NCBI RefSeq assembly: GCF_023721795.1
Contig: NZ_JAMQYE010000001.1
Span: 2,351,671 to 2,391,670 of the forward strand
Length of the DNA: 40,000 bases
Direction: 5' to 3'
Origin: Zeimonas sediminis
GTDB taxonomy: Bacteria > Pseudomonadota > Gammaproteobacteria > Burkholderiales > Burkholderiaceae_E
A model generated the notes under the pieces. That model did not search any database. It was not told the origin of the DNA and worked only from the letters and a program-made list of their open reading frames with translations. Both the position numbers and the translations under genes were made by a program. Below, piece by piece: positions 19,989 to 32,058 of this stretch (position 1 is its first letter; each line of letters begins with the position of its first letter).

Positions 19989-20869
19989 TCTCCGTCGCGC
20001 AAATCACGCGGCCGCGCGCCGGCGGACGGGGTACCCGTCTACCTCGACGTCTCGGGCTCGAGGGAGAGCCCAATCGCGCTGGGCCTCTGCGAGCGCGAGC
20101 ACCGCCACCTCTCCGACGACCAGGCGATCTGCATCGGCTACGCCAACACGATGGCCGACACCAACCACCTACCGCCCGCCCACTGGCTGGCCAACCGGAT
20201 CGGCCGCGAGCTGTTCCGCCTGCGGCTGGAGAAAGGCGCCGGCCAGTTCGGCCCCGACGGCAAGGTGCTGGCGCAGGTGCGCACCGACGGCCACGGCCGG
20301 CAGCCCGAGCGCGTGTCGATCTCGCTGCACAACCACGAAGGCTCCGACTGGTTGCTGCTGCGCAGGATCGCCGAAGAGGCGGTGGCCCGCGCCTGCGCCG
20401 GCAAGAACATGCCCGCGCTGGTGCTGAACGGCGCCGGCATGTTCGTGGCCGGCGGCCCGAACGGCGACAACGGCACCACCGGCAAGAAGCTGGTGATGGA
20501 CGCCTACGGCCCCACGGTGCCGATCGGCGGCGGCGCCTGGTCGGGCAAGGACTTCAGCAAGGTGGGCCGGGCCGGGGGGATGCTGGCGCGGGAGCTGGCG
20601 CTGGTGGCGGTAAGGCGGGCGAGGAGGGAGGCGCGGGTGGAGTGGAGGTACGAGCCGGGTGGGGCGGGGCCGGCCGGGGTGGGGGTTTGGGTGGATGGCC
20701 GGGCAATAGGGTCGGCAGAGATGTGGACGCTATCGGGAGCCGCCACTATGACTTCGGTGTCGCGCGAAGGTTGATTGCCGAGCTCAACGGGCCACTGGCA
20801 GAAAGGGGACGATGGGAGCATTTCAACGCGGTCACCACCAGTGATCGAGGCCGACGGCACGCCGCATGA
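19965..20869 (+). pseudogene. S-adenosylmethionine synthetase (MetK)-like gene lacking the N-terminal domain and probably frameshifted near its 3' end
   Basis: The frame-3 translation runs from the stop at 19962-19964. It reads ...DDQAICIGYANTMADTNHLPPAHWLANRI...GAGMFVAGGPNGDNGTTGKKLVMDAYGPTVPIGGGAWSGKDFSKVGRAGGMLARELA. This aligns by eye with the E. coli MetK middle and C-terminal domains (GDQGLMFGYA...[41 protein letters not shown]). No room or sequence exists for the first ~85 aa. After ~20720 the MetK-like signal seems to continue in frame 2 (...YDFGVARRLIAELNG...) up to 20869. Confidence 0.45.
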
Positions 20870-21118
20870 GGGCCCGACTGGAGATCAAGAGACGTCGTCG
20901 CGCCGCCCGCCTGATGCTCGCGGGACCACGTGGGTACCGCCCTCTGGGCGGCTGCGATCGTCGCATGTGGCCAGGGCACCCATCGGTAGGCCTCTGAAGC
21001 GCCTAGCCTGTAGTTACTAATCCGTTTGTTCAGACTTCGTCCCGCAGTTATTGGCCAAGTCAGAAGCGCATCAGTTACACTAATCGGAATCGATTACTCT
21101 GCTTGTGAAACTGCTGCG

Positions 21119-22057
21119 ATGTCCGGTGACTATGTCGTGGTCACAAACTGCACCGCGCGCAAGCGGGCCGGTGCTCCGCTGGTCCGCTTCGACCCGAAGC
21201 CATCGGCCGCCGCGCTCTCCGAGATCGTCGAGGAATGGCGTTCGGCGCTGCGTTCACAACCCGTGCGCTTGCCTGCGAAGGAGCTCTATGTCGGCCGCTC
21301 GATCAGCGAGGCGAAGTGCGTTGCTCAACAATTGCGATGTTCGCTCTTCGTCGTGTCCGCCGGCCTCGGACTGGTCGAAGAAGATGAGATGGTGCCGGGC
21401 TACGACCTTTCCGCCGCTGGCGCCACCTCCGGCTTGACGCCGGTGTTGGCCCGTCACGGCGCATCCGTCGGCGAGTGGTGGAACACCCTAACTGACGGCC
21501 GCGGATTGCGCTGGTTGCTTCAGCGCGCCTCGGGAGCAGTCGTTCTCCTGGCACTGCCTACGGACTATCTTCGACTCGTCAAGGGGGAACTGCAGGAAAT
21601 GCAGCCCGGCGAGATCTCTCGGCTTCGTGTACTTACATCCGAAGCTGGTCGTAGGGAGTTAGCCACTCTCCCCGCTTTACCAGTGATGCCTTATGACGAC
21701 CGACTGGAGTCGATTCCTGGCCTTGCGGGAACTCGGTCGGACTTTCCTCAACGTGCCCTCCGTCACTTCACCGAGCGCCTTGAAGCTCACAGGCTACCAG
21801 CAGACGTGGCTACCCGAGAGGTGCTGCTCGCCTTGGCTAGATGCGAACACCGAGTTCTCCCGCAGCGAGCACGACTGAACGACGAGGAGATTTGCGGCCT
21901 AATCCGCAGCGGTTGGCCGACGTTCGGCGGGAACAGCGCACGACTATTACGCCATCTCCGAGACGACCACAAAGTCGCGTGCGAGCAGGGGCGCTTCGCT
22001 GCCTTGCGGCGCCGCGTCCAACAGGAACTCGTTGAGAGCTCTGCTGCCTCAGGGTGA
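21119..22057 (+). CDS. uncharacterised protein, first gene of the deazaguanine-modification operon (N-terminus reminiscent of DUF6884-type domains)
   Basis: Start placed at ATG 21119 within ORF 21026..22057. YVVVTNCTARKR...AKELYVGRSISEAK...LFVVSAGLGLVEEDEMVPGYD resembles the CSxxK / elY / ilSAkyGL / PYD pattern I recall for DUF6884. The C-terminal ~130 aa is unrecognised. It ends 4 nt before the next gene. Confidence 0.6.
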   Translation: MSGDYVVVTNCTARKRAGAPLVRFDPKPSAAALSEIVEEWRSALRSQPVRLPAKELYVGRSISEAKCVAQQLRCSLFVVSAGLGLVEEDEMVPGYDLSAAGATSGLTPVLARHGASVGEWWNTLTDGRGLRWLLQRASGAVVLLALPTDYLRLVKGELQEMQPGEISRLRVLTSEAGRRELATLPALPVMPYDDRLESIPGLAGTRSDFPQRALRHFTERLEAHRLPADVATREVLLALARCEHRVLPQRARLNDEEICGLIRSGWPTFGGNSARLLRHLRDDHKVACEQGRFAALRRRVQQELVESSAASG

Positions 22058-22061
22058 CAAC

Positions 22062-23204
22062 ATGGCAACTTCAAAGAAGGGAAGGGAAATTGTCATTCGC
22101 GCTCTGCGGACAAGGCAGGGCCCGGGTCTAGACGTCTACGCATTCTTCATTCGCGGCTCGGACATCATTCGCGTGGCCGACATTTCGCGTATCGGACGAG
22201 ACGAACAAGAAGGACTGAAAGGCTTTCAGCGACCGGAGATCCGCACTCATGTGCGCAGCATCGTGGAGTATCTCAATCAAGGCAGCGTGCTGTTTCCGAA
22301 CGCCATTATCCTTGCCCTTTCGCCCGAGGTTCATTTCGCCGCGTCCCGCGGCACCCGTCCGTCCGGTGACGAAGGCATCGCCCAGAGCGGCACCTTGACC
22401 ATCCCGATCTATGAAGAGGGGCGGCGCGTAGCTTGGATCGTTGACGGTCAGCAACGCTCGCTCGCCCTCGCACAGACAGAACGGAAAGACATCTCCGTTC
22501 CCGTCGTTGGGTTCGTTTCCGACAGCCTGGAAGTCCAACGCGAGCAGTTCATCCTCGTTAACAAAGCGAAGCCTCTACCCACGCGTCTCATTAACGAGTT
22601 GCTGCCCGAGACGCGGTCAGTGCTTCTCCCACGGGAACTCAGTGTTCGGCGAGTGCCTGCGGAATTGTGCGGCCTTCTCAACAGAGACCCTGCATCGCCA
22701 TTCTTCGGGCTCATCAAGCGCCCGTCCGATGACTCTCGCGACCGCAATTCTGTCGTCACCGACACGGCGGTTATAAACGTCATCAAGAACAGCATGAACA
22801 ATCCACTGGGCGCCTTGGCCACCTTCCGCCTTAGCTCGAACGGGCGCGATGGCGTCGATGTCGAAAGCATGTACGCCCTATTGGTGACTTTCTGGTCGGC
22901 GGTAAAAGTTGTGTTTCCGGACGCGTGGGGCCGTGACCCGCGCCATAGCCGCCTGATGCACTCCGCGGGCATCGAAGGAATGGGCGTGCTAATGGACCGC
23001 ATCTACGCACGGCTTCAGCCCAGCGCCGACGTTAAAGCCGTCGAGAGCGAATTGCGTAGGGTCGCGCCCTACTGCCGCTGGACAAAGGGTGTCTGGGATA
23101 GCCTCGGGCTGGCGTGGAACGAAATCCAGAGTACGCCGCGCGATATTCGACGTCTGCAGAATGCACTGGTCCAGGCCTACTCGGCAGCAGGGGCCGCGCG
23201 TTGA
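22062..23204 (+). CDS. DGQHR-domain (DndB/DpdB-like, ParB-fold) protein, paralog 1
   Basis: 380 aa from ATG 22062. Motifs present: LKGFQRPEIRTHVRSIVEYL, FPNAIILAL, WIVDGQQRSLAL, QFILVNKAKPLP. Confidence 0.8.
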   Translation: MATSKKGREIVIRALRTRQGPGLDVYAFFIRGSDIIRVADISRIGRDEQEGLKGFQRPEIRTHVRSIVEYLNQGSVLFPNAIILALSPEVHFAASRGTRPSGDEGIAQSGTLTIPIYEEGRRVAWIVDGQQRSLALAQTERKDISVPVVGFVSDSLEVQREQFILVNKAKPLPTRLINELLPETRSVLLPRELSVRRVPAELCGLLNRDPASPFFGLIKRPSDDSRDRNSVVTDTAVINVIKNSMNNPLGALATFRLSSNGRDGVDVESMYALLVTFWSAVKVVFPDAWGRDPRHSRLMHSAGIEGMGVLMDRIYARLQPSADVKAVESELRRVAPYCRWTKGVWDSLGLAWNEIQSTPRDIRRLQNALVQAYSAAGAAR

Positions 23205-24493
23205 AGTTCCTCTATTCCGACACCCAGGATTACGTCGACCCAAAGTACGACTTCCTTAACGACCGCCCGAACCCAAAGCGTGAACGGTACTGGAACGACG
23301 CCTACGCGCATGAACTCATGCGCGAGGCACCCTACGACGGCCTCCTTGTGGCTATGAGCGCAGTGCGCCAAGCCGAGGGCGTCGCTTCGTCGAAAGTGCG
23401 CTACTCGACAGCCGAAGAGCAGCGAATGCTGCGCATCGGCGCCCGAAAGTACCTGCGCTTCGATGGGCCGAAGTTCAAGGATCTGATGCTGATGGGGGAT
23501 TGCGGTGCATTCGCGTACGCGGAGCACCCCCAACCCGCCTACTCGCCAGAGGAAGTGGTCGAGTTCTACCTGGACGCCGAGTTCACACACGGGGTCTCGC
23601 CTGACCACATCATCTTTGAGTGCGACTTGGAGAATCCGCCAGCGAGCGCTATGCCCGAGGCTCAGCGGCGATTTGAGATCACGCTGGAGAACGCCCAAGA
23701 GTTCATCAAACTCGTCCACCAGGAGGGTGACTTCTTCGAGCCAATGGGTGCCGTTCAGGGTTGGTCGCCGCAGAGCATGGCCGACGCTGCCGACAAACTC
23801 GTCAAGATGGGATACGGCTACTTGGCAATCGGCGGACTCGTTCCACTGAAAGTAGACGTTATCAAAACGGTGCTGGAGGCCATCAGGAACAAGATCGGCC
23901 CGGAGCCAAGGCTTCACCTGCTCGGCTTTGCGAAGGCTGATCATATTCATCAGTTCGTCCGCTACGGCATTACCAGTTTCGACTCGACCTCGCCGCTTAT
24001 CCGTGCCTTTAAGGACGACAAGGCCAATTACTACATCGAGAACGGCGAAGGCGGTTTGGACTACTACACTGCAATCCGCATCCCACAGGCTCTCGAGAAC
24101 AGCCGACTGATGCAGGGCGTCAAGCGCGGTTCGTTCAGCGCTGAAGACCTTGCCAAGCGAGAACGGGTCGCCCTTAAAGCGTTACGCGACTTCGATCAAG
24201 AGCGGGGCAGTATCCAGGGGACCGTGGATGCCGTAATGGACTATCACCAGTTCCTAGTCTTGGGTGAAGGGGGCGACGAGAGCGCTCACGCCAAGGCGTT
24301 GTCCAAGATCCGCGAGCGCGTGCAGCGCACACTCGAGGCCCGCCCGTGGAAACGGTGCGATTGCGCAATCTGCGAGGCCGTGGGCGTGGAAGTCATCATC
24401 TTTCGTTCCAGCAACCGGAACAAGCGACGTGGATTCCACAACCTTGGCGTTTATCACCGACACCTGAAGAGAACCCTGGAGCATTCCGCGTGA
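23201..24493 (+). CDS. dpdA: DpdA-type (TgtA5) DNA-guanine transglycosylase
   Basis: Start placed at TTG 23201, which overlaps the upstream stop (TTGA) and is preceded by AGCAGGGG. This gives MKFLYSDTQDYVDPKYDF..., a DpdA-like N-terminus. TIM-barrel-like segments are present: GYGYLAIGGLVPL, LHLLGFA, TSFDSTSP. The C-terminal TGT-type zinc motif is CDCAIC-x22-H. An upstream ATG at 23114 is an alternative start. Confidence 0.8.
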   Translation: MKFLYSDTQDYVDPKYDFLNDRPNPKRERYWNDAYAHELMREAPYDGLLVAMSAVRQAEGVASSKVRYSTAEEQRMLRIGARKYLRFDGPKFKDLMLMGDCGAFAYAEHPQPAYSPEEVVEFYLDAEFTHGVSPDHIIFECDLENPPASAMPEAQRRFEITLENAQEFIKLVHQEGDFFEPMGAVQGWSPQSMADAADKLVKMGYGYLAIGGLVPLKVDVIKTVLEAIRNKIGPEPRLHLLGFAKADHIHQFVRYGITSFDSTSPLIRAFKDDKANYYIENGEGGLDYYTAIRIPQALENSRLMQGVKRGSFSAEDLAKRERVALKALRDFDQERGSIQGTVDAVMDYHQFLVLGEGGDESAHAKALSKIRERVQRTLEARPWKRCDCAICEAVGVEVIIFRSSNRNKRRGFHNLGVYHRHLKRTLEHSA

Positions 24494-25563
24494 GCGTCTA
24501 TCAATACTCTGCAATCCGAGCACGCCAGGCTGCGGAGCATGACGTCTTCGTCTTCGCTGCGAACCCCAAAGAGGTACTGGAATTCGCGCAGATCGAACGC
24601 GTTGGACGCTCGGACGATGGGCAACTCAAGGGATTTCAGCGGCATCAGATCGCATCGCATATCCGCGATATCCGAGACTATCTGAGCCGCGCAGATGCGC
24701 TTCTGCCCAACGCTGTGATTGTGGCCTTTATCGAGGGGGTGACAGTCAGGGACGTCGGCGACGGGCGGCTGGAAGTGTCAATTGACGCCCGCAAGACCCC
24801 TCCAGGATTTGTCGTCGACGGACAGCAACGCCTAACTGCGCTTTCTGGGCTGGACAAGCCAGATTTCCAGGTGTTCGTATCTGCCGTCGTGTGCAAGAAC
24901 TACGACGAGCTTCGCCAGCAGTTCGTACTCATCAACAGCACTCGGCCGCTCCCCAAGACCCTGATTTACGAGCTACTGCCAACTGTTGAGGGCCTGCCGC
25001 AGCGGTACACGTCGCGCCGCTTTGCGGCCAGGGTGGTAGAGCGACTCAATTTCACCGGCGGCCGGGCACTGCGCGGCGAGATTCGTCAACACACCAATCC
25101 ATCCGGTGTCATCAGTGACACGGCCATGCAGAAACTCGTGATGAACTCGGCCGCGCACGGCGCTATCCGCGAGTTCATCCAATACGAAGATCGTGAAGAT
25201 CGTGCCGTCTCCCTAATCAACGAGTTCTTCGAAGCTGTAGCCACGGTATTTGGCGGCCAGTGGGTCGGCATGAGTCCACGCGTTTCGCGTCTTCGTCATG
25301 GAGCGGGGATCGTCGCCATGGGCTTTGTGATGGATCTGCTCCACTCCTCCCAGGGGGCGACCACCAAAGATGGCTTCGTGCCCGGGCTCGAATTGCTCAA
25401 ACCCTTTACGGCTTGGACCTCTGGCACTTGGAAGATGGACGACTGCGAGTTTGTCTGGAACGACATTCAGAACACTCCCTCCGACATCGACCTCCTTACG
25501 CGTCATCTCGTGTCAGCCACAAAGCGGCAGCTTCGCAAACTGCGTCGGGCCGCCAACGCTTGA
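24490..25563 (+). CDS. DGQHR-domain (DndB/DpdB-like) protein, paralog 2
   Basis: Start placed at GTG 24490, which overlaps the dpdA stop (GTGA) with GGAG 10-13 nt upstream. Motifs present: LKGFQRHQIASHIRDIRDYL, LPNAVIVAF, FVVDGQQRLTAL, QFVLINSTRPLP. It is colinear with paralog 1. Confidence 0.8.
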   Translation: MSVYQYSAIRARQAAEHDVFVFAANPKEVLEFAQIERVGRSDDGQLKGFQRHQIASHIRDIRDYLSRADALLPNAVIVAFIEGVTVRDVGDGRLEVSIDARKTPPGFVVDGQQRLTALSGLDKPDFQVFVSAVVCKNYDELRQQFVLINSTRPLPKTLIYELLPTVEGLPQRYTSRRFAARVVERLNFTGGRALRGEIRQHTNPSGVISDTAMQKLVMNSAAHGAIREFIQYEDREDRAVSLINEFFEAVATVFGGQWVGMSPRVSRLRHGAGIVAMGFVMDLLHSSQGATTKDGFVPGLELLKPFTAWTSGTWKMDDCEFVWNDIQNTPSDIDLLTRHLVSATKRQLRKLRRAANA

Positions 25564-25569
25564 ATAGTC

Positions 25570-26277
25570 ATGAGCACTTCCGCACTCGTCTTGTTCTCCG
25601 GCGGTCAGGATTCCGCCACGTGCCTTGCATGGGCGTTGGACCGTTATGACTTCGTCGAGACGGTGGGCTTCGACTATGGTCAACGGCACAGGGTTGAAAT
25701 GGAGTGCCGAGAGATCTTTCGAAGCGAACTGCGGAGTCACTTCCCTGCATGGGGCGGGAGACTTGGCGATGACCACCTTCTGGATCTAGGACTTCTTAGC
25801 CGAATTAGCGACACAGCACTCACCGCCGAGAAGCAGATTGAGTTCGACGAATCAGGGCTTCCGAATACGTTTGTTCCAGGCCGCAATCTCTTGTTCTTCA
25901 CTCTGGCCGCCGCGATTGCCTACCGTCGCGGCCACAAGATCCTCGTGGGCGGGATGTGCGAGACTGACTATTCGGGCTATCCGGACTGCCGCGACGACAC
26001 GCTCAAAGCTCTTCAGGTAACACTGAATCTTGGTTTGAACTCTCGCCTTGTCGTTGAGACCCCGCTTATGTGGATCGACAAGGCCCGCACGTGGACACTC
26101 GCCCAACAACTTGGCGGAGACGCGCTAGTTGCCCTCATACGAGAGAAGACGCACACCTGCTACCTGGGCGATCACGAGACTTGGCATGACTGGGGCTATG
26201 GCTGCGGGACTTGCGCGGCCTGCGAATTGCGTCTCAGAGGCTATGAGGCATTCGCCCGCGAGGAGGGAGCCAAATGA
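25570..26277 (+). CDS. queC: 7-cyano-7-deazaguanine (preQ0) synthase QueC
   Basis: 235 aa. PP-loop [12 protein letters not shown]; also [18 protein letters not shown]. The C-terminal zinc-site cysteines are C...CGTCAAC. Confidence 0.9.
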
Positions 26278-27371
26278 ACCAACCGGTTATTGTGACCCAG
26301 GCGACGGCGGGGTTTGAGGCGGCGCGCCAAGTGGACGTATTACCCGAAGGACATCGGTGTCGCTCACTGCACGGCCATAGCTTTCAGGCCACTGTGTTCG
26401 CTGAACTGCCAGAAGGCTTTGCCGCTTATCCAGGCGGCGAAGTCGACGCACTTAGCGCCCGTCTCGACGAGTGCGTGTCTCAGCTGAACTATGCGTATCT
26501 CAATCGTGTGATGCCGCAACCTACCGATGAGAACATCGCGCGATTCCTCCGTGAACAGTTGAGGATTCCGGGTATCGATCGTGTCGCGATCCAGAGTACG
26601 ACAATGCAGGGAGTGGATCTGAATCGGGAGGGACAGGCCCACGTGTGGCGGCGATTCCGATTTCAAGCAGCACACCGACTTCCGAACGTACCGCTAGGGC
26701 ACAAGTGCGGCCGAATGCATGGCCACGGTTTTGAGGCGATCATCCACGCAAACCAAGACCTTGGAACTCGTCCATTAAGCACTGACTACGACCACCTTGA
26801 TTCCGTGTGGGCACCGTTGCACGCGCAACTTAACTACCAGTGCCTAAATGAAATCGAGGGCCTCGAAAACCCAACTAGCGAGAACCTGGCCGGGTGGATC
26901 TGGCGGCAACTGAAGCCCGCACTGCCCGAGCTATCTTGGGTGACCGTTTTTGAGACGGCATCTTGTGGTGCGCACTTCGACGGCGAGAACTACCGCATCT
27001 GGAAGGAATTCACACTCGATAGCGCCGTGCGTTGCGAGCGCGCCCCGGAAGGCTCAGATCGTAACCGTACGCACGGTCACACTTATACGCTTCGACTCCA
27101 CCTTGACGCACCACTGAACGAGATCCTCGGTTGGACCGTCGACTTCGGTGACGTCAAGACCATCTTCGACCCAATCTTCAAGTCTATCGACCACCAGATG
27201 CTCAATGGGCTCCCGGGATTGGCTGACGGGAACGCGGCCAGCGTGGCACGATGGATTTTGGATCAGGCCCGACCAAAACTTCCTCACCTCTCCCGCGTCG
27301 ATCTTCACGAAACCCCCGGCACCGGTTGCCTCATAGCAGATAACCTCGACGGTCCGACAATGCCGGTCTGA
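26274..27371 (+). CDS. queD: triple-tandem QueD / 6-carboxytetrahydropterin synthase (PTPS-fold) protein
   Basis: 365 aa, ATGA overlap with queC. It has three ~115-aa modules (about aa 8-118, 124-238, 241-355). Module 2 is close to E. coli QueD: [26 protein letters not shown]...[15 protein letters not shown]...FETASCGA. Modules 1 and 3 are degenerate copies. Confidence 0.8.
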
Positions 27372-27594
27372 CCAACACTAAAGGCTGATTTCGCGAGGAA
27401 ATAACACATCACTTACCTCGACTACCTGGAGTTGTAGCCACAGCGACCTTCTAGCCGACCCGAATGAGAATCATGCGGGGAGTCACGCCACCACCTACCT
27501 CGACCTCCACTGCTGCCAACATACGGGTACTTGACACCTGCACACCAGTGTCAAAGCCAACAAGAGTCGCTACCTCCGTTCTCGATCATCTCTG

Positions 27595-28500
27595 CTAACC
27601 CCCTTCTCGACCTGGCACCTGCCGCCCTTTTTCCCTCGGACTCCAGTCCACCGACAAAGGTGCCACCATTCTTTCCCTTATACAAGCCTGACACATCGTC
27701 GAGCAATTCGCCGGAATACTCAAGCCCGTCCGCACTCGCTTATAGACAAAAAGCTCAGCGTAACTCGGCGAAACGCCGCATCCATCACACTTGCCATCGC
27801 GGCACAGAACGATCCACCGATGGGTTAGCCCGATCTGCCCGACCGCCTGAAAATCATTTCGCTCAAAGAAATCGAACGCAAACTGGGATGTAGCCCACGA
27901 AAGGAGATCGCGCTTGCCCGCATTGCACGACAAACAGGCAATCGCCCAGTTCTTCGCCTCCGGTGGGTCATCACCGATGTGCTTGGGCAACATATGCTCC
28001 AAGCTCTCTTCAACGTTGGGATCACTAAAGAGCGCCCCGCACCAAATACAACGCCCACCTTGCCTTCCCATAACCTTTGTGTACAACGGGTAGTCCGACT
28101 TAAGCGTACCGATCTTCGCCACCTGCGCCCTCGCGGCAGTTGCTGTCAGACCCCGAAGTTTGGCGATATTAATGATCAGATTACGAAGTTCCGCTTTGCT
28201 TTCGCTCGAGATCTGAATACCCAATTCTCCCAGATGCTCGTCGATAAGGGCGTCGTAACTCACGTTTGCAGGCGCGTGCAACGCCTTCTCCGGAATCAGC
28301 GTAAACAATATAGAGTGCCGAATTGCCGGTTCTAGACCGGCAGTGAGACTTTCCAAGGGTTTCCCCAAGGTTCGCGCCCAATCCACCAAGGCAGCGAAAA
28401 GAGTCGGCCACGAATCTGATCTGCCCCTTACGCCCTCCAAGAAATAAGTGTCACTTCTGAGCACCTGGGACACGAGGGAATTTAAGATCTCGCTCGACAT
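27595..28500 (-). CDS. HNH endonuclease-domain protein with extra C-terminal Cys cluster
   Basis: 301 aa. HNH core at aa 151-196: CIWCG...SLEHMLPKHIG...NWAIACLSCNAGK. Second cluster: CRDGKCDGCG...CSTMCQAC. The N-terminal ~140 aa is unrecognised. Its start lies 12 nt after the stop of the upstream DGQHR gene. Confidence 0.75.
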   Translation of the reverse strand: MSSEILNSLVSQVLRSDTYFLEGVRGRSDSWPTLFAALVDWARTLGKPLESLTAGLEPAIRHSILFTLIPEKALHAPANVSYDALIDEHLGELGIQISSESKAELRNLIINIAKLRGLTATAARAQVAKIGTLKSDYPLYTKVMGRQGGRCIWCGALFSDPNVEESLEHMLPKHIGDDPPEAKNWAIACLSCNAGKRDLLSWATSQFAFDFFERNDFQAVGQIGLTHRWIVLCRDGKCDGCGVSPSYAELFVYKRVRTGLSIPANCSTMCQACIRERMVAPLSVDWSPREKGRQVPGREGG

Positions 28501-28512
28501 TTCTTTTTCTTC

Positions 28513-30009
28513 TCACTTGAACCAAGAATCGGCCTTCCAATTTTTCGCAACGCGCCCTTCTATCTTCCCGTCATTGATGAGTTTAGATAGCAGCTTGCGC
28601 AATTCATCTCTACCCTGATTAGTATCAAGACTAACCTTCTCCCAGGGCACGCTCCACATGTCGACCGGGACATACGCCAAGTTCGTGCGGACCACGTCCT
28701 CAAATGCCACCCTGAGCGATTCCACCCTCTCCTCCATCGACGCCTCTGGAGCAACTTTCCAGTGCGACTTCATTTGCCCGTCGGCCTCTATGAGAAGCGC
28801 TTCCTGCAGAGCCCACAGACTGGCACCAATGAAGAATCTGTTCCCCTCGTATTTCTTCCAGTAACTGTTTGGATAATGATCCCGGACAATTCCCCAAAAT
28901 AAGCAGAAAAAGTCAAACCAAATTTTACTGGAACGCCACTCGCTTCGGGCTTTATTTGCATTTTCGGTGGAGAACAGGCTCTTCGCAATTTGAACGAAGG
29001 AGTTGCGCTGGGCCGTGTACCACACCTTCGCTACGCGCTTAATGGCGGCATACCCCAGGAGATCGCTTTTTGCGGATTTTTCTCCGACACCCATGTCAAT
29101 AAAGTTGCTGAATGGGCTCTGGTCATCATAAGCAACCATACTCATGATTTCCACTTCGGTCATCTTGACGCCAGCCTGATTTAACCTACCCCGCAACTGT
29201 GATTGCTCAACCTTCGACAGACTCAGCGCGGCAATTGAAGTTATCAGCGAGGGAGGAATCTTCTTAGGCTTGATGTTTACCACGGTGAACTGGAAAACCT
29301 GCTCCGACCATGTCGCGTCGTAAAGACCGCAGACCATAAACGGCAATCCTTTCGGTCCAAATTTTGCTCCCGCGGAAATCCTGTGTTGGCCATCGATCAC
29401 CATTGCCGGTTTTACGTAGTCCGCGATCGCGTCTCGAAAGGCCGGATTGACCCAGTTCTCTTTATCCCTTAGGAGATCTCGCATCTTGGCAAGCGTTTCG
29501 GTGCCGAGATGAACGGAGATGTCTGTGGCGCCGCCGTTTTCTTCCTCGTCTTCAATCTCGTCAAGATCTTGGTCATCGTCTTCCGAAACCTCCTCTTCCG
29601 ATTGTTCAGCGTCTGCGCCCAAACGTTGTTCAATATAAGAAAGGGCTTGCTCGAAGATCGCGTCAGTTTTCATGGCGTCTTCGTCCATCTCGATCTCTAA
29701 TTGGGTCTCGACGACTTCGCCAACGGGCATCTCGGTGTTTGCGAGGACACATCTTCCAATGCCGGTGTCCGCACGGAGCGCAATGATGACTGCGGTGGGA
29801 CTGCAGTTAGCCGGGTTCTGGAAGAACGGTACGATCGAGCGATTGATGCGGTCGTCGTCCTTAAATCGCTGATAACCAGTGAGCAACTCGTCGGACTTTC
29901 GAGGGATTCCGGCCCATGTCAAGACGTCACCCGCGTTTGCAACGAATGCAACCTGAATCGGTGACTTGGCCTGCTGGCGAAAGGCGAAGACTGAGTAAAC
30001 CAGTTTCAT
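28513..30009 (-). CDS. divergent DGQHR-domain protein (paralog 3) with acidic insertion
   Basis: 498 aa. Motifs present: LTGYQRFKDDDRINRSIVPFF, PTAVIIAL, MVIDGQHRISA, QFTVVNIKPKKIP. It carries a 25-aa acidic run EQSEEEVSEDDDQDLDEIEDEEENG and a long Trp-rich C-terminal domain. Confidence 0.75.
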   Translation of the reverse strand: MKLVYSVFAFRQQAKSPIQVAFVANAGDVLTWAGIPRKSDELLTGYQRFKDDDRINRSIVPFFQNPANCSPTAVIIALRADTGIGRCVLANTEMPVGEVVETQLEIEMDEDAMKTDAIFEQALSYIEQRLGADAEQSEEEVSEDDDQDLDEIEDEEENGGATDISVHLGTETLAKMRDLLRDKENWVNPAFRDAIADYVKPAMVIDGQHRISAGAKFGPKGLPFMVCGLYDATWSEQVFQFTVVNIKPKKIPPSLITSIAALSLSKVEQSQLRGRLNQAGVKMTEVEIMSMVAYDDQSPFSNFIDMGVGEKSAKSDLLGYAAIKRVAKVWYTAQRNSFVQIAKSLFSTENANKARSEWRSSKIWFDFFCLFWGIVRDHYPNSYWKKYEGNRFFIGASLWALQEALLIEADGQMKSHWKVAPEASMEERVESLRVAFEDVVRTNLAYVPVDMWSVPWEKVSLDTNQGRDELRKLLSKLINDGKIEGRVAKNWKADSWFK

Positions 30010-30498
30010 TGTAGGAGTCTCGATAGTTGGACTGGGTTGAGATTCAAAGCCAGCGTAGAACGCGGCGCCCTAAATTGAATGTGAATGCAGTTACGACTGC
30101 AGATGTTCTTTTAAAGGAAACCGGGTTCACCGTCACCTTGTAACCGGGCAAAACCAGTTGCGGAAAATAGTTGTCGAGCACTTGTGACCTCTGGCTTCGA
30201 AAGCTCCTTTGCTTCTAACGCGAAAACGGAACCCTGTGGCCTCGAGCACTCAGATGTAAGGGAACCACACGGGCTCCTCTAACCCACCGAGCAACGCGAT
30301 TGCGCAACCTTCCGATCTAGTCAGAAGTAGGCGGGATATTCGCAATGGCCGTCAAGGTGGACATGGGGCTTAGCCAAGAGAGGGGACCAGGCCCTCGCTT
30401 GGGACCATTCTTGATTTGGCGCACGAGGTGGCAAATCAGATCCTCCGTGCGCTCACACAGACAGACCCGTGGGCGCGTTCTTGGCGCGACTGGTCGCG

Positions 30499-32058
30499 TC
30501 ACCTGTCGGATGCGAGGAACCTGGCCAACACCACCATCGCCCACGTATCCATCGCGCAGTACCTCCTCAGCGCCCCCTCCAGCTCCGCCCGCCTCGCCTC
30601 GCCGGTCTCCGGGGCGATCGCCTCCAGGTACGCCGCCTGCGCAGCCGCGCCGTGCTGCACTTCGTCGAGCAGGCCGTAGTCGACCCCGCCGGGGATCGTG
30701 GGCAGCACCGCCTTGATCGAGCGCGAGCCGCACATGTCGGGGTGGTAGTAGTGCGCGCGCACCAGCGGCAGCAGGTCCACCAGGCGCCGGGCGATCCGGT
30801 TGAGCGGCCTTGCCAGGTCGGGGAACTCGCCGGCGAGCGCGCGCAGCACGCTGCGCTCGAAGCCGGCGTTGTAGACGATGACCGGGCCTGCGGCCGGCAG
30901 CTCGCGCGCGAGCGCTTCGGCGCAGGCGCGGCGCGGGTCGGCGCCGCTCAGGTCCAGGAAGGCGGCTTCGCGCACCTGGCCTTCGTCCGACGGCCCTTCT
31001 TCTGATGACCCTTCTCCCGGCGGCCCTTCCTCGATCTGGCACGACCACTGGAACGGCAGCTGCTGGTAGGGCCGGGTACCGGGCCACTGGGGCACGGCGA
31101 AGCCGATCGTTTCGAAGTCCAGGTAGGCGCGCGGCCAGCCCAGCCCGGCGAGCTTCTCGGCGGCCTGCGGCTCGAGCAGCGGCGCGCCTTCGCGGGTGAC
31201 GCGGGCGATCATGGCCAGCTCGGGGTCTTCGATGCGCCCGGGCGGTACGCTGCGCAGGTCATCAAAGCCTTCGGCCAGCAGCTGGGCGGCCAGCTTCTTG
31301 CCCTTGGTATTGGGCAGCAGCGTGACCGGGTACTCGGGCTGCGGGCCCGCTAGACGCGCGCAGTGCGCCTGGAACGGGCAGTCGAAGGGCGAGCGGCACT
31401 GCTCGCCCATCGCGATGGCGGGCTCGTCGCCCTGCAGGATGCGTTCGGCCTCGCGCACCCAGCGCGGCACCTGGTCGAGCAGCGGCTCGGTGGCGGCGGT
31501 GAGGTCCTCGCGCGCGAACAGGCCCGCGTAGTCGGAGCCGCCGGGCCAGATCCAGCTGGTGTCCACGTGCCACTGCTCCACGCCTGCCAGCGGCGCCAGG
31601 GGGCCGGCCGCCCAGGAGTCGTCCTTCAGCTGCCCCTGCAGCACCCAGCGCTGGATCGCCACGTCGGCCAGGTGGTAGTCGCGCACCGAGCTGGTCGACT
31701 TGACCTCGGCGAGCCGCCAGCCGCCGGGCGCGGGCAGCAGCAGGTCGGCGCGCACCAGCACGCCGTCGCGCTCGAAGGTGGCCTCGTAGAGCGGGCGGCG
31801 CGGCGCGGCGGCGAGCAGCTCGCGGGTGAGGCGCAGCGCCTCGGCCAGGTCGGGCCGGTCGGTGCCGGGCACGCGCGGGTCGATCAGCGTGCCGCCGGGC
31901 GCCAGCGTGCGCGCGACCTCGCCCACCCGGTGGCCGGCGGCGAATACCAGCTGGGTGACGGCCGAGTCTTCGCGCAGCTCGGGGTGGCGGACCTGCAGCC
32001 ACAGGCGTTTGGGGCACTGCTGCAGGTCTTGCAGGCGGGATTTGGAGAGGCGGGGCAT
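30499..32058 (-). CDS. DUF2779-type protein: Cas4/RecB-like PD-(D/E)XK nuclease with Fe-S cysteines fused to an RNase-H-fold exonuclease-like domain
   Basis: 519 aa. The N-terminus SKSRLQDLQQCPKRLWL plus ...RADLLL...WRLAEVKSTS and CRSPFDCPFQAHC gives four Cys, as in Cas4/AddB. The C-terminal half reads YLDFETIGFAVP...IVYNAGFERSVL...YCAMDTWAMV. Confidence 0.7.
   Translation of the reverse strand: MPRLSKSRLQDLQQCPKRLWLQVRHPELREDSAVTQLVFAAGHRVGEVARTLAPGGTLIDPRVPGTDRPDLAEALRLTRELLAAAPRRPLYEATFERDGVLVRADLLLPAPGGWRLAEVKSTSSVRDYHLADVAIQRWVLQGQLKDDSWAAGPLAPLAGVEQWHVDTSWIWPGGSDYAGLFAREDLTAATEPLLDQVPRWVREAERILQGDEPAIAMGEQCRSPFDCPFQAHCARLAGPQPEYPVTLLPNTKGKKLAAQLLAEGFDDLRSVPPGRIEDPELAMIARVTREGAPLLEPQAAEKLAGLGWPRAYLDFETIGFAVPQWPGTRPYQQLPFQWSCQIEEGPPGEGSSEEGPSDEGQVREAAFLDLSGADPRRACAEALARELPAAGPVIVYNAGFERSVLRALAGEFPDLARPLNRIARRLVDLLPLVRAHYYHPDMCGSRSIKAVLPTIPGGVDYGLLDEVQHGAAAQAAYLEAIAPETGEARRAELEGALRRYCAMDTWAMVVLARFLASDR

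Follow-up and report, generated by a model that had tools for sequence, protein, structure and literature searches.

Annotation of a 40,000-nucleotide stretch of the Zeimonas sediminis genome (contig NZ_JAMQYE010000001.1, positions 2,351,671 to 2,391,670; hereafter the window) revealed an operon of the Dpd 7-deazaguanine DNA-modification system, in which two genes encoding DpdB paralogs (B1 and B2) enclose dpdA. The gene order is dpdC-dpdB1-dpdA-dpdB2-queC-queD, all on the + strand. A pair of genes convergent with this operon (27595-30009, -) encodes a third, divergent DpdB-family protein (B3) and an HNH-like nuclease candidate. The distinguished features are as follows:

21000-30300, no strand: low-GC island holding the whole system, 51-61% GC against about 70% in the flanks (composition profile)
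21119-22057, +: dpdC, DUF6884, family of hydrolases converting preQ0-DNA to ADG-DNA (PADLOC DpdC, 1.7e-84)
22062-23204, +: dpdB1, upstream DpdB paralog B1, 380 amino acids (aa) (NF041060, 458.9 bits, model positions 2-352 of 352; PADLOC DpdB, 3e-138)
23201-24493, +: dpdA, TGT-like DNA guanine transglycosylase, 430 aa (NF041059, 541 bits against a cut-off of 200, model positions 1-405; Pfam TGT, 3.4e-08)
24490-25563, +: dpdB2, downstream DpdB paralog B2, 357 aa (NF041060, 374 bits, model positions 3-352 of 352; PADLOC, 4e-123)
25570-26277, +: queC, 7-cyano-7-deazaguanine synthase, preQ0 supply (Pfam QueC, 2e-65; TIGR00364, 192.9 bits against a cut-off of 150.3)
26274-27371, +: queD-like gene, 365 aa, three PTPS/QueD repeats (Pfam PTPS, 1.4e-56, and TIGR03367, three stretches each)
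27595-28500, -: HNH-like nuclease candidate, 301 aa (Pfam HNH, 17.9 bits, below threshold; Cys/His motif in the translation)
28513-30009, -: B3, third divergent DpdB-family paralog, 498 aa (hhalign against the DpdB family)

Since the family scores exceed the curated cut-offs, we are nearly certain that the genes make up the modification operon of a Dpd subtype that has two DpdBs and is widespread, and that this operon is carried on a horizontally acquired island. The dpdC open reading frame (ORF) opens at TTG 21026; its likely start is ATG 21119, as the PADLOC alignment begins at residue 31 of the TTG frame. The Pfam DUF6884 match of its product is weak, and dpdC lies upstream of dpdB1 in nearly all related loci. 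In DpdA the zinc site CxCxxC...H (C386, C388, C391 and H413) is invariant in a 10-sequence alignment. No match to dpdD-K was obtained among the island and flank ORFs scanned against PADLOC, NCBIfam and Pfam, a scan that covered part of the window's ORFs.

Two DpdB paralogs on either side of dpdA

B1 and B2 are colinear paralogs, as proposed in an earlier note made from the letters of this DNA. They share 34% identity in BLASTP (residues 14-372 versus 8-343, E 4e-58), far beyond chance, and all the motifs quoted in the note occur in both: LKGFQRP/LKGFQRH, FPNAIILA/LPNAVIVA, VDGQQR, and QFILVN..PLP/QFVLIN..PLP (B1 and B2, respectively). The DGQQR motif is located at residue 128 of B1 and residue 110 of B2. 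Both proteins match the NCBIfam equivalog model for DpdB, NF041060, end to end and pass its cut-off of 300 bits. Pfam DndB matches all the paralogs; the model for dnd-associated DGQHR proteins, TIGR04172 (cut-off 450 bits), gave only 41, 45 and 22.6 bits for B1, B2 and B3, respectively, and the EHxxP nuclease motif of SspE is absent from all three. The dpdB2 product is 100% identical to a protein from Burkholderiaceae bacterium FT117.

Conservation was assessed in 74 orthologs of each paralog. The motifs LxGFQR, (F/L)PN, VDGQQRxxAL, QFxLxN, LPxxLIxELLP, SRLxHxxG and WTxGxW are conserved in at least 90% of the sequences in both clades, which have 59 conserved columns in common and differ by 12 fixed differences, mostly conservative. 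Loss of the catalytic or ATP-binding residues from one paralog, which the note had named, together with dispensability of that paralog, as grounds for abandoning its idea, was not seen: the nucleoside triphosphatase (NTPase) motifs are intact in both at the same level of conservation, and by these residues B1 and B2 both look catalytic. An AlphaFold2 model of B1 (predicted local distance difference test, pLDDT, 92; predicted template modelling score, pTM, 0.86) retrieved ParB-N, ParB-CDP and PadC structures as the top Foldseek matches in the PDB (5k5d, 6sdk, 6ryk, 7nfu), none of them significant (all E > 0.01). No relative of solved structure emerged when the PDB was searched by sequence with B1, B3 and the two family profiles.

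The age of the duplication was estimated from a profile search of 1.84 billion representative sequences, which yielded 2369 family members at E<=0.001. A neighbour-joining tree was built from 147 sequences, comprising 104 full-length representatives (50% identity), the labelled loci and B3 as outgroup. This phylogeny and the pairwise alignment were checks of the kind that the earlier note had suggested, and they bore out two old, distinct DpdB groups: B1 and B2 form separate, reciprocally monophyletic clades with bootstrap values of 94 and 97, and within-clade distances of 0.62 and 0.71 compare with 1.48 between the clades. The B1 and B2 superclades hold 26 and 10 representatives, respectively (36/104). 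In the sister group of B1, too, members occupy the upstream position of such dpdB-dpdA-dpdB sandwiches. The canonical Enterobacter DpdB is 38% identical to B1 and to B2, which leaves the three about equally distant from one another. Because of this, and of the reciprocal monophyly, the two-DpdB architecture is judged from the tree to be old, with two distinct subunits retained over the long term rather than a recent duplicate. The branching order received bootstrap values of 54 (B2 with canonical DpdB), 33 (B1 with B2) and 13 (B1 with canonical DpdB); orthology of B2 to the canonical DpdB was considered and rejected as unproven at a bootstrap of 54.

To follow the arrangement beyond the window, we collected 11 genome loci, 80 metagenome loci and annotated plasmids. 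Co-occurrence was scored in a set of 94 loci whose DpdA is 44-82% identical to that of the window, with at least 1.2 kb of room required on the side in question. B1 was found upstream of dpdA in all 75 loci with room, B2 downstream in 74 of 75, and both in 59 of the 60 loci with enough flank, the exception being a frameshift-ridden metagenome-assembled genome (MAG). The sandwich had been presented as a departure from the canonical system; surveyed across genomes, it turned out to be the norm for a large DpdA clade and not a peculiarity of the window. The premise of a single DpdB in the canonical Salmonella/Enterobacter type was borne out; its gene is located downstream of dpdA. The same order is found in more distant relatives (L101, L109 and Cystobacter fuscus, L106), and the PGAP/RefSeq annotation reads DpdB-DpdA-DpdB-queE-queD-queC on Agrobacterium vitis and Caulobacter plasmids. 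Plasmids of cyanobacteria and Paenibacillus encode a DpdA fusion of about 690 aa without an adjacent DpdB. The GATOR-GC survey of 2025 counted 2335 unique dpd islands, in which dpdB had the most additional copies (n = 801), and left these copies without interpretation (PMC12235509).

Several related loci show further variations. Four carry an extra, divergently transcribed copy of the B2 clade upstream of dpdC (L035 4717-5937, L036 1270-2361, L037 4327-5403 and L096 4717-5820, all -), so that, together with B1 and B2, they hold three genes of this type. A DUF6884 (DpdC-type) N-terminal part is joined to a TGT/DpdA domain in proteins of about 690-703 aa encoded in L101 (240-2351), L016 (753-2849) and L017 (9158-11227); in L101 this gene stands divergently beside a complete DndB-TGT-DndB sandwich. 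An apparent B1-DpdA-B2 triple fusion (P0239) proved to be a frameshift artefact of a fragmented assembly and was not used as evidence.

The junctions of the sandwich are as described earlier, with 4-nt overlaps at TTGA 23201-23204 and GTGA 24490-24493. B1 runs from ATG 22062 to TGA 23202-23204, DpdA from TTG 23201 to TGA 24491-24493 and B2 from GTG 24490 to TGA 25561-25563. The non-ATG start of dpdA is supported by the alignment of NF041059, which begins at model position 1 at TTG 23201; the alternative upstream start given as ATG 23114 is in fact a GTG codon. In 85 related loci the codon at the dpdA start position is ATG (68), GTG (12) or TTG (5). The B1 stop and dpdA start overlap by 4 nt in 69 of these loci, the rest showing spacings of -1, +1 or +8 and three larger gaps, and the dpdA stop and B2 start do so in 39 of 69 loci (GTGA or ATGA in 10 of the 11 genome loci). 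Elsewhere in the operon, gaps of 4 and 6 nt separate dpdC from dpdB1 and dpdB2 from queC, respectively, and queC and queD share a 4-nt ATGA overlap (26274-26277). As queC and queD overlap likewise, such junctions are an operon-wide feature and not a signature of the sandwich, and an overlap of 4 nt is the commonest type in compact operons. From the overlaps, translational coupling and fixed stoichiometry had been argued; the first part stands, in that they fit one coupled transcription unit, and the second does not, since they are weak evidence for any special B:A:B stoichiometry.

Functional relations of B1, B2 and DpdA

In Salmonella Montevideo, DpdB is an ATPase that carries DGQQR and is required for the exchange of guanine for preQ0 by DpdA (Gedara et al. 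2023, PMC10164549). It is a homodimer according to small-angle X-ray scattering and multi-angle light scattering, and DpdC acts independently (PMC10164549). A DNA-stimulated ATPase on which DpdA depends, and the homodimeric state, are known for the Montevideo DpdB only. Transferred to the island, the pathway established in Salmonella would proceed as follows. QueC and QueD, together with the host FolE and QueE, would make preQ0; DpdA would swap guanine in DNA for preQ0, at the cost of ATP hydrolysed by a ParB-like DpdB; and DpdC would then hydrolyse dPreQ0 to dADG.

As the Montevideo DpdB is a homodimer, a hetero-oligomer of B1 and B2 is plausible. We propose, with a probability of about 0.45-0.5, that a B1:B2 heterodimer, acting as a ParB-like ATPase clamp, takes the place here of the single DpdB homodimer. 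Both subunits would be catalytically competent, B2 would contact DpdA and B1 would pair with B2. Support comes from the co-inheritance of both genes (59/60 loci), the recurrence of the sandwich in distant relatives and on plasmids, the motifs kept in both clades, the age of the two paralogs and their covariation. The last was measured by partial Mantel tests in 42 non-redundant loci that encode all five proteins, each pair being corrected for the others. Correlation was strong between B2 and DpdA (r 0.78, p<=0.0005), lower between B1 and B2 (r 0.38, p<=0.0005) and not significant between B1 and DpdA (r 0.05), B1 and DpdC (r 0.09) or B2 and DpdC (r 0.09). Such a chain, B1-B2-DpdA, fits a heterodimer with B2 proximal to DpdA.

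Several points weigh against the heterodimer. The partial Mantel test is liberal under shared phylogeny, and some of the B1-B2 covariation could stem from homologous folds undergoing substitution in similar ways. All NTPase motifs are present in both paralogs, whereas obligate heterodimers often have asymmetric active sites. The 4-nt overlaps occur operon-wide, and the B1/dpdA junction varies among orthologs. One short contig (L091) reads dpdC-dpdA-dpdB2 without B1, so B1 can be lost. Finally, a natural DpdC::B1 fusion of 689 aa, followed by dpdA and dpdB2, joins B1 to DpdC and not to B2; it is encoded in metagenome contigs L103 (667-2736), L104 and L105 and in the whole-genome shotgun contig L064 (3068-5221), and a single lineage accounts for all of these cases. 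Canonical-type fusions of DpdA to DpdB are known from five separate 50% clusters, and the signals from gene fusions are mixed.

A rival idea is that of two separate homodimers, with B2 activating DpdA and B1 serving another step, e.g. recruiting DpdC or translocating it along DNA for the conversion of preQ0 to ADG. The DpdC::B1 protein, found in independent samples, would be expected under this scheme, as would the canonical-type DpdA::DpdB fusions, the strong covariation of B2 (and none of B1) with DpdA, and the C-A-B2 order of L091. B2 holds the canonical position downstream of dpdA, and B1 looks inserted beside dpdC when the operon is compared with the canonical order, dpdC-dpdA-dpdB. We nevertheless consider separate homodimers unlikely: the residual covariation of B1 is with B2 and not with DpdC, the DpdC of Salmonella works independently of DpdA and DpdB in vitro (PMC10164549), and the fusion is limited to its single lineage.

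It is more improbable still that B1 is a DndB-like regulator or site selector, which would bind DNA at the operon promoter or at targets and tune how often, or in which sequence context, modification takes place while B2 alone powers DpdA. DpdB does fall in the DndB/DGQHR group, and DndB is on record as regulating phosphorothioation through DNA binding (PMC5699537); of the two paralogs B1 is the operon-proximal one, and its covariation with DpdA is absent. B1, however, outscores B2 on the DpdB equivalog model and keeps every NTPase motif, the upstream region gave neither a promoter-like site, in a scan that was uninformative overall, nor an operator-like repeat, and the near-perfect co-occurrence exceeds what would be expected of a tuning factor. 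It seems very improbable that either paralog is merely redundant or decaying and lacks a role of its own. The contig without B1 and the frameshifts of B1 in a few MAG loci (L033 and L011, possibly assembly errors) point that way; the depth of the two clades, with the within-clade distances far below the between-clade one, the conservation of the motifs across the orthologs surveyed and the presence of both genes in all but one informative locus speak against it. A B1:B2 heterodimer with B2 as the DpdA-contacting subunit thus remains our preferred reading.

The B3 and HNH genes and the borders of the island

B3 carries DGQHR at residue 206 and an acidic insert around residues 139-165. Its alignment to the DpdB family in hhalign spans the full length (probability 99.5%, E 3e-23), its AlphaFold2 model has a pLDDT of 86, and with NF041060 it scores 58 bits, well below the cut-off, so it does not classify as a DpdB equivalog. 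About 90 homologs were found, all annotated as hypothetical. In 3/3 informative cases B3 homologs lie beside a DpdC-DndB-TGT-DndB operon, and orthologs of the HNH protein directly follow B3 orthologs in Cystobacter, Ideonella and a Joint Genome Institute (JGI) contig (E 1e-23 to 2e-118). The pair (L106 9001-11393, L107 9001-11431, L109 9001-11350) recurs beside two-DpdB dpd operons of Burkholderiales, Myxococcota and metagenomes, and related HNH and DGQHR pairs of about 400 aa are present in nine further loci. PADLOC does not include the B3 + HNH pair, and no Pfam family covers it. In Ideonella and Ralstonia (L107 and L108) the B3-containing island directly follows dnaA-dnaN-gyrB, a placement that suggests a recurrent integration hotspot near the replication origin.

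Islands without a restriction operon exist, e.g. in Agrobacterium, some of them with HNH neighbours (PMC12235509). From its recurrent position, the B3 + HNH pair is a plausible candidate for the restriction arm of islands lacking dpdD-K. A more tentative and, on balance, doubtful extension is that the island encodes a compact, self-contained 7-deazaguanine restriction-modification system made of three ParB-like DGQ(Q/H)R paralogs. In it, B1:B2 would load or activate DpdA to write the mark, whereas B3 and the HNH protein would recognise the mark, cleave DNA that lacks it and so stand in for the eight genes dpdD-K. An asymmetric B1:B2 clamp could then also allow recognition of non-palindromic targets. 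Should the DGQHR + HNH pair be the restriction arm, it would be a two-gene 7-deazaguanine reader, far simpler than dpdD-K.

The queD-like gene of the island is unusual in its length, its triple repeat of 365 aa comparing with about 120 aa for the usual QueD; the closest loci and Ideonella retain it. On the island, neither queE nor folE accompanies queC and this queD, whereas queE and a queD of one domain are present in more distant two-DpdB loci.

The island is flanked by housekeeping genes (ABC transporter, thiolase, TetR, HAD and CoA-transferase genes), and no tRNA gene, integrase gene or flanking direct repeat was found at its borders. A partial metK-like ORF (20151-20771, +) in high-GC DNA abuts the left edge; it scores 81.9 bits with NCBIfam metK (cut-off 309; model positions 129-304 of 377) and is possibly what remains of a gene at the insertion border. 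To the immediate right of the island, also in high-GC DNA, a DUF2779 protein is encoded (30499-32058, -) that has a weak PD-(D/E)XK/Cas4-like match. The promoter and terminator scan was uninformative (1 promoter-like site versus 3.2 expected).

Significance and comparison with known systems

The arrangement is the conserved norm of a large, already annotated subtype, and extra dpdB copies have already been counted in print, both of which reduce its novelty; the two-DpdB operon is most fittingly regarded as a variant, so far uncharacterised, of a known system. Our literature search found no analysis of two DpdBs, with several key earlier works on the system outside its reach. TGT-ParB neighbourhoods were reportedly discussed by Iyer in 2013. 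The subtype is common in environmental Proteobacteria and Myxococcota, and as more than a third of the full-length DpdB representatives fall in the B1 and B2 superclades, it is a main form of the system and not a curiosity. Its interest lies in serving as a natural handle on the DpdB mechanism. How the DpdB ATPase enables base exchange by DpdA in duplex DNA is a question left by the only characterised Dpd system. A two-subunit version separates the halves of the DpdB dimer genetically, so that the ATP site, the DNA contacts and the DpdA contacts could be mutated singly and clamp and helicase-like models tested directly.

The window shares with the Dpd system of Salmonella Montevideo the DpdA, DpdB and DpdC families, linked genes of preQ0 biosynthesis and DGQQR, and with the Enterobacter homolog the 4-nt overlap of dpdA and dpdB. 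It differs in having two anciently diverged DpdBs flanking dpdA instead of one downstream copy, and in the divergent DGQHR and HNH proteins that adjoin the operon, where dpdD-K was not found. On the Salmonella-type plasmid of Enterobacter cloacae, in contrast, dpdA and a single dpdB are followed by dpdD, K, J and H, and the Enterobacter DpdA is only about 39% identical to that of the window.

Among other systems, DndB and SspE have a ParB/Srx-like N-terminal NTPase domain with DGQ(H/Q)R, a motif that the paralogs of the window carry in a probably similar domain, and the coupling of an NTPase module to a nuclease in SspE resembles the B3 + HNH pair; the partner enzyme in the window is, however, a transglycosylase and not DndACDE or SspABCD. 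The CTPase clamps ParB, Noc and PadC are the closest solved folds to the B1 model, by weak matches, and show nucleotide-gated N-terminal dimerisation, as proposed for DpdB (PMC10164549). Unlike the proposed B1:B2 clamp, they are homodimers with a GxxRxxA box that use CTP, and their role is in segregation and not in base exchange. A precedent for a paralog heterodimer replacing a homomeric enzyme in deazaguanine insertion is the eukaryotic TGT, QTRT1/QTRT2 (PMC10164549). In that case it is the transglycosylase that has been duplicated, with one non-catalytic copy, whereas in the window the duplication concerns the accessory ATPase, and B1 and B2 both have the look of catalytic proteins.

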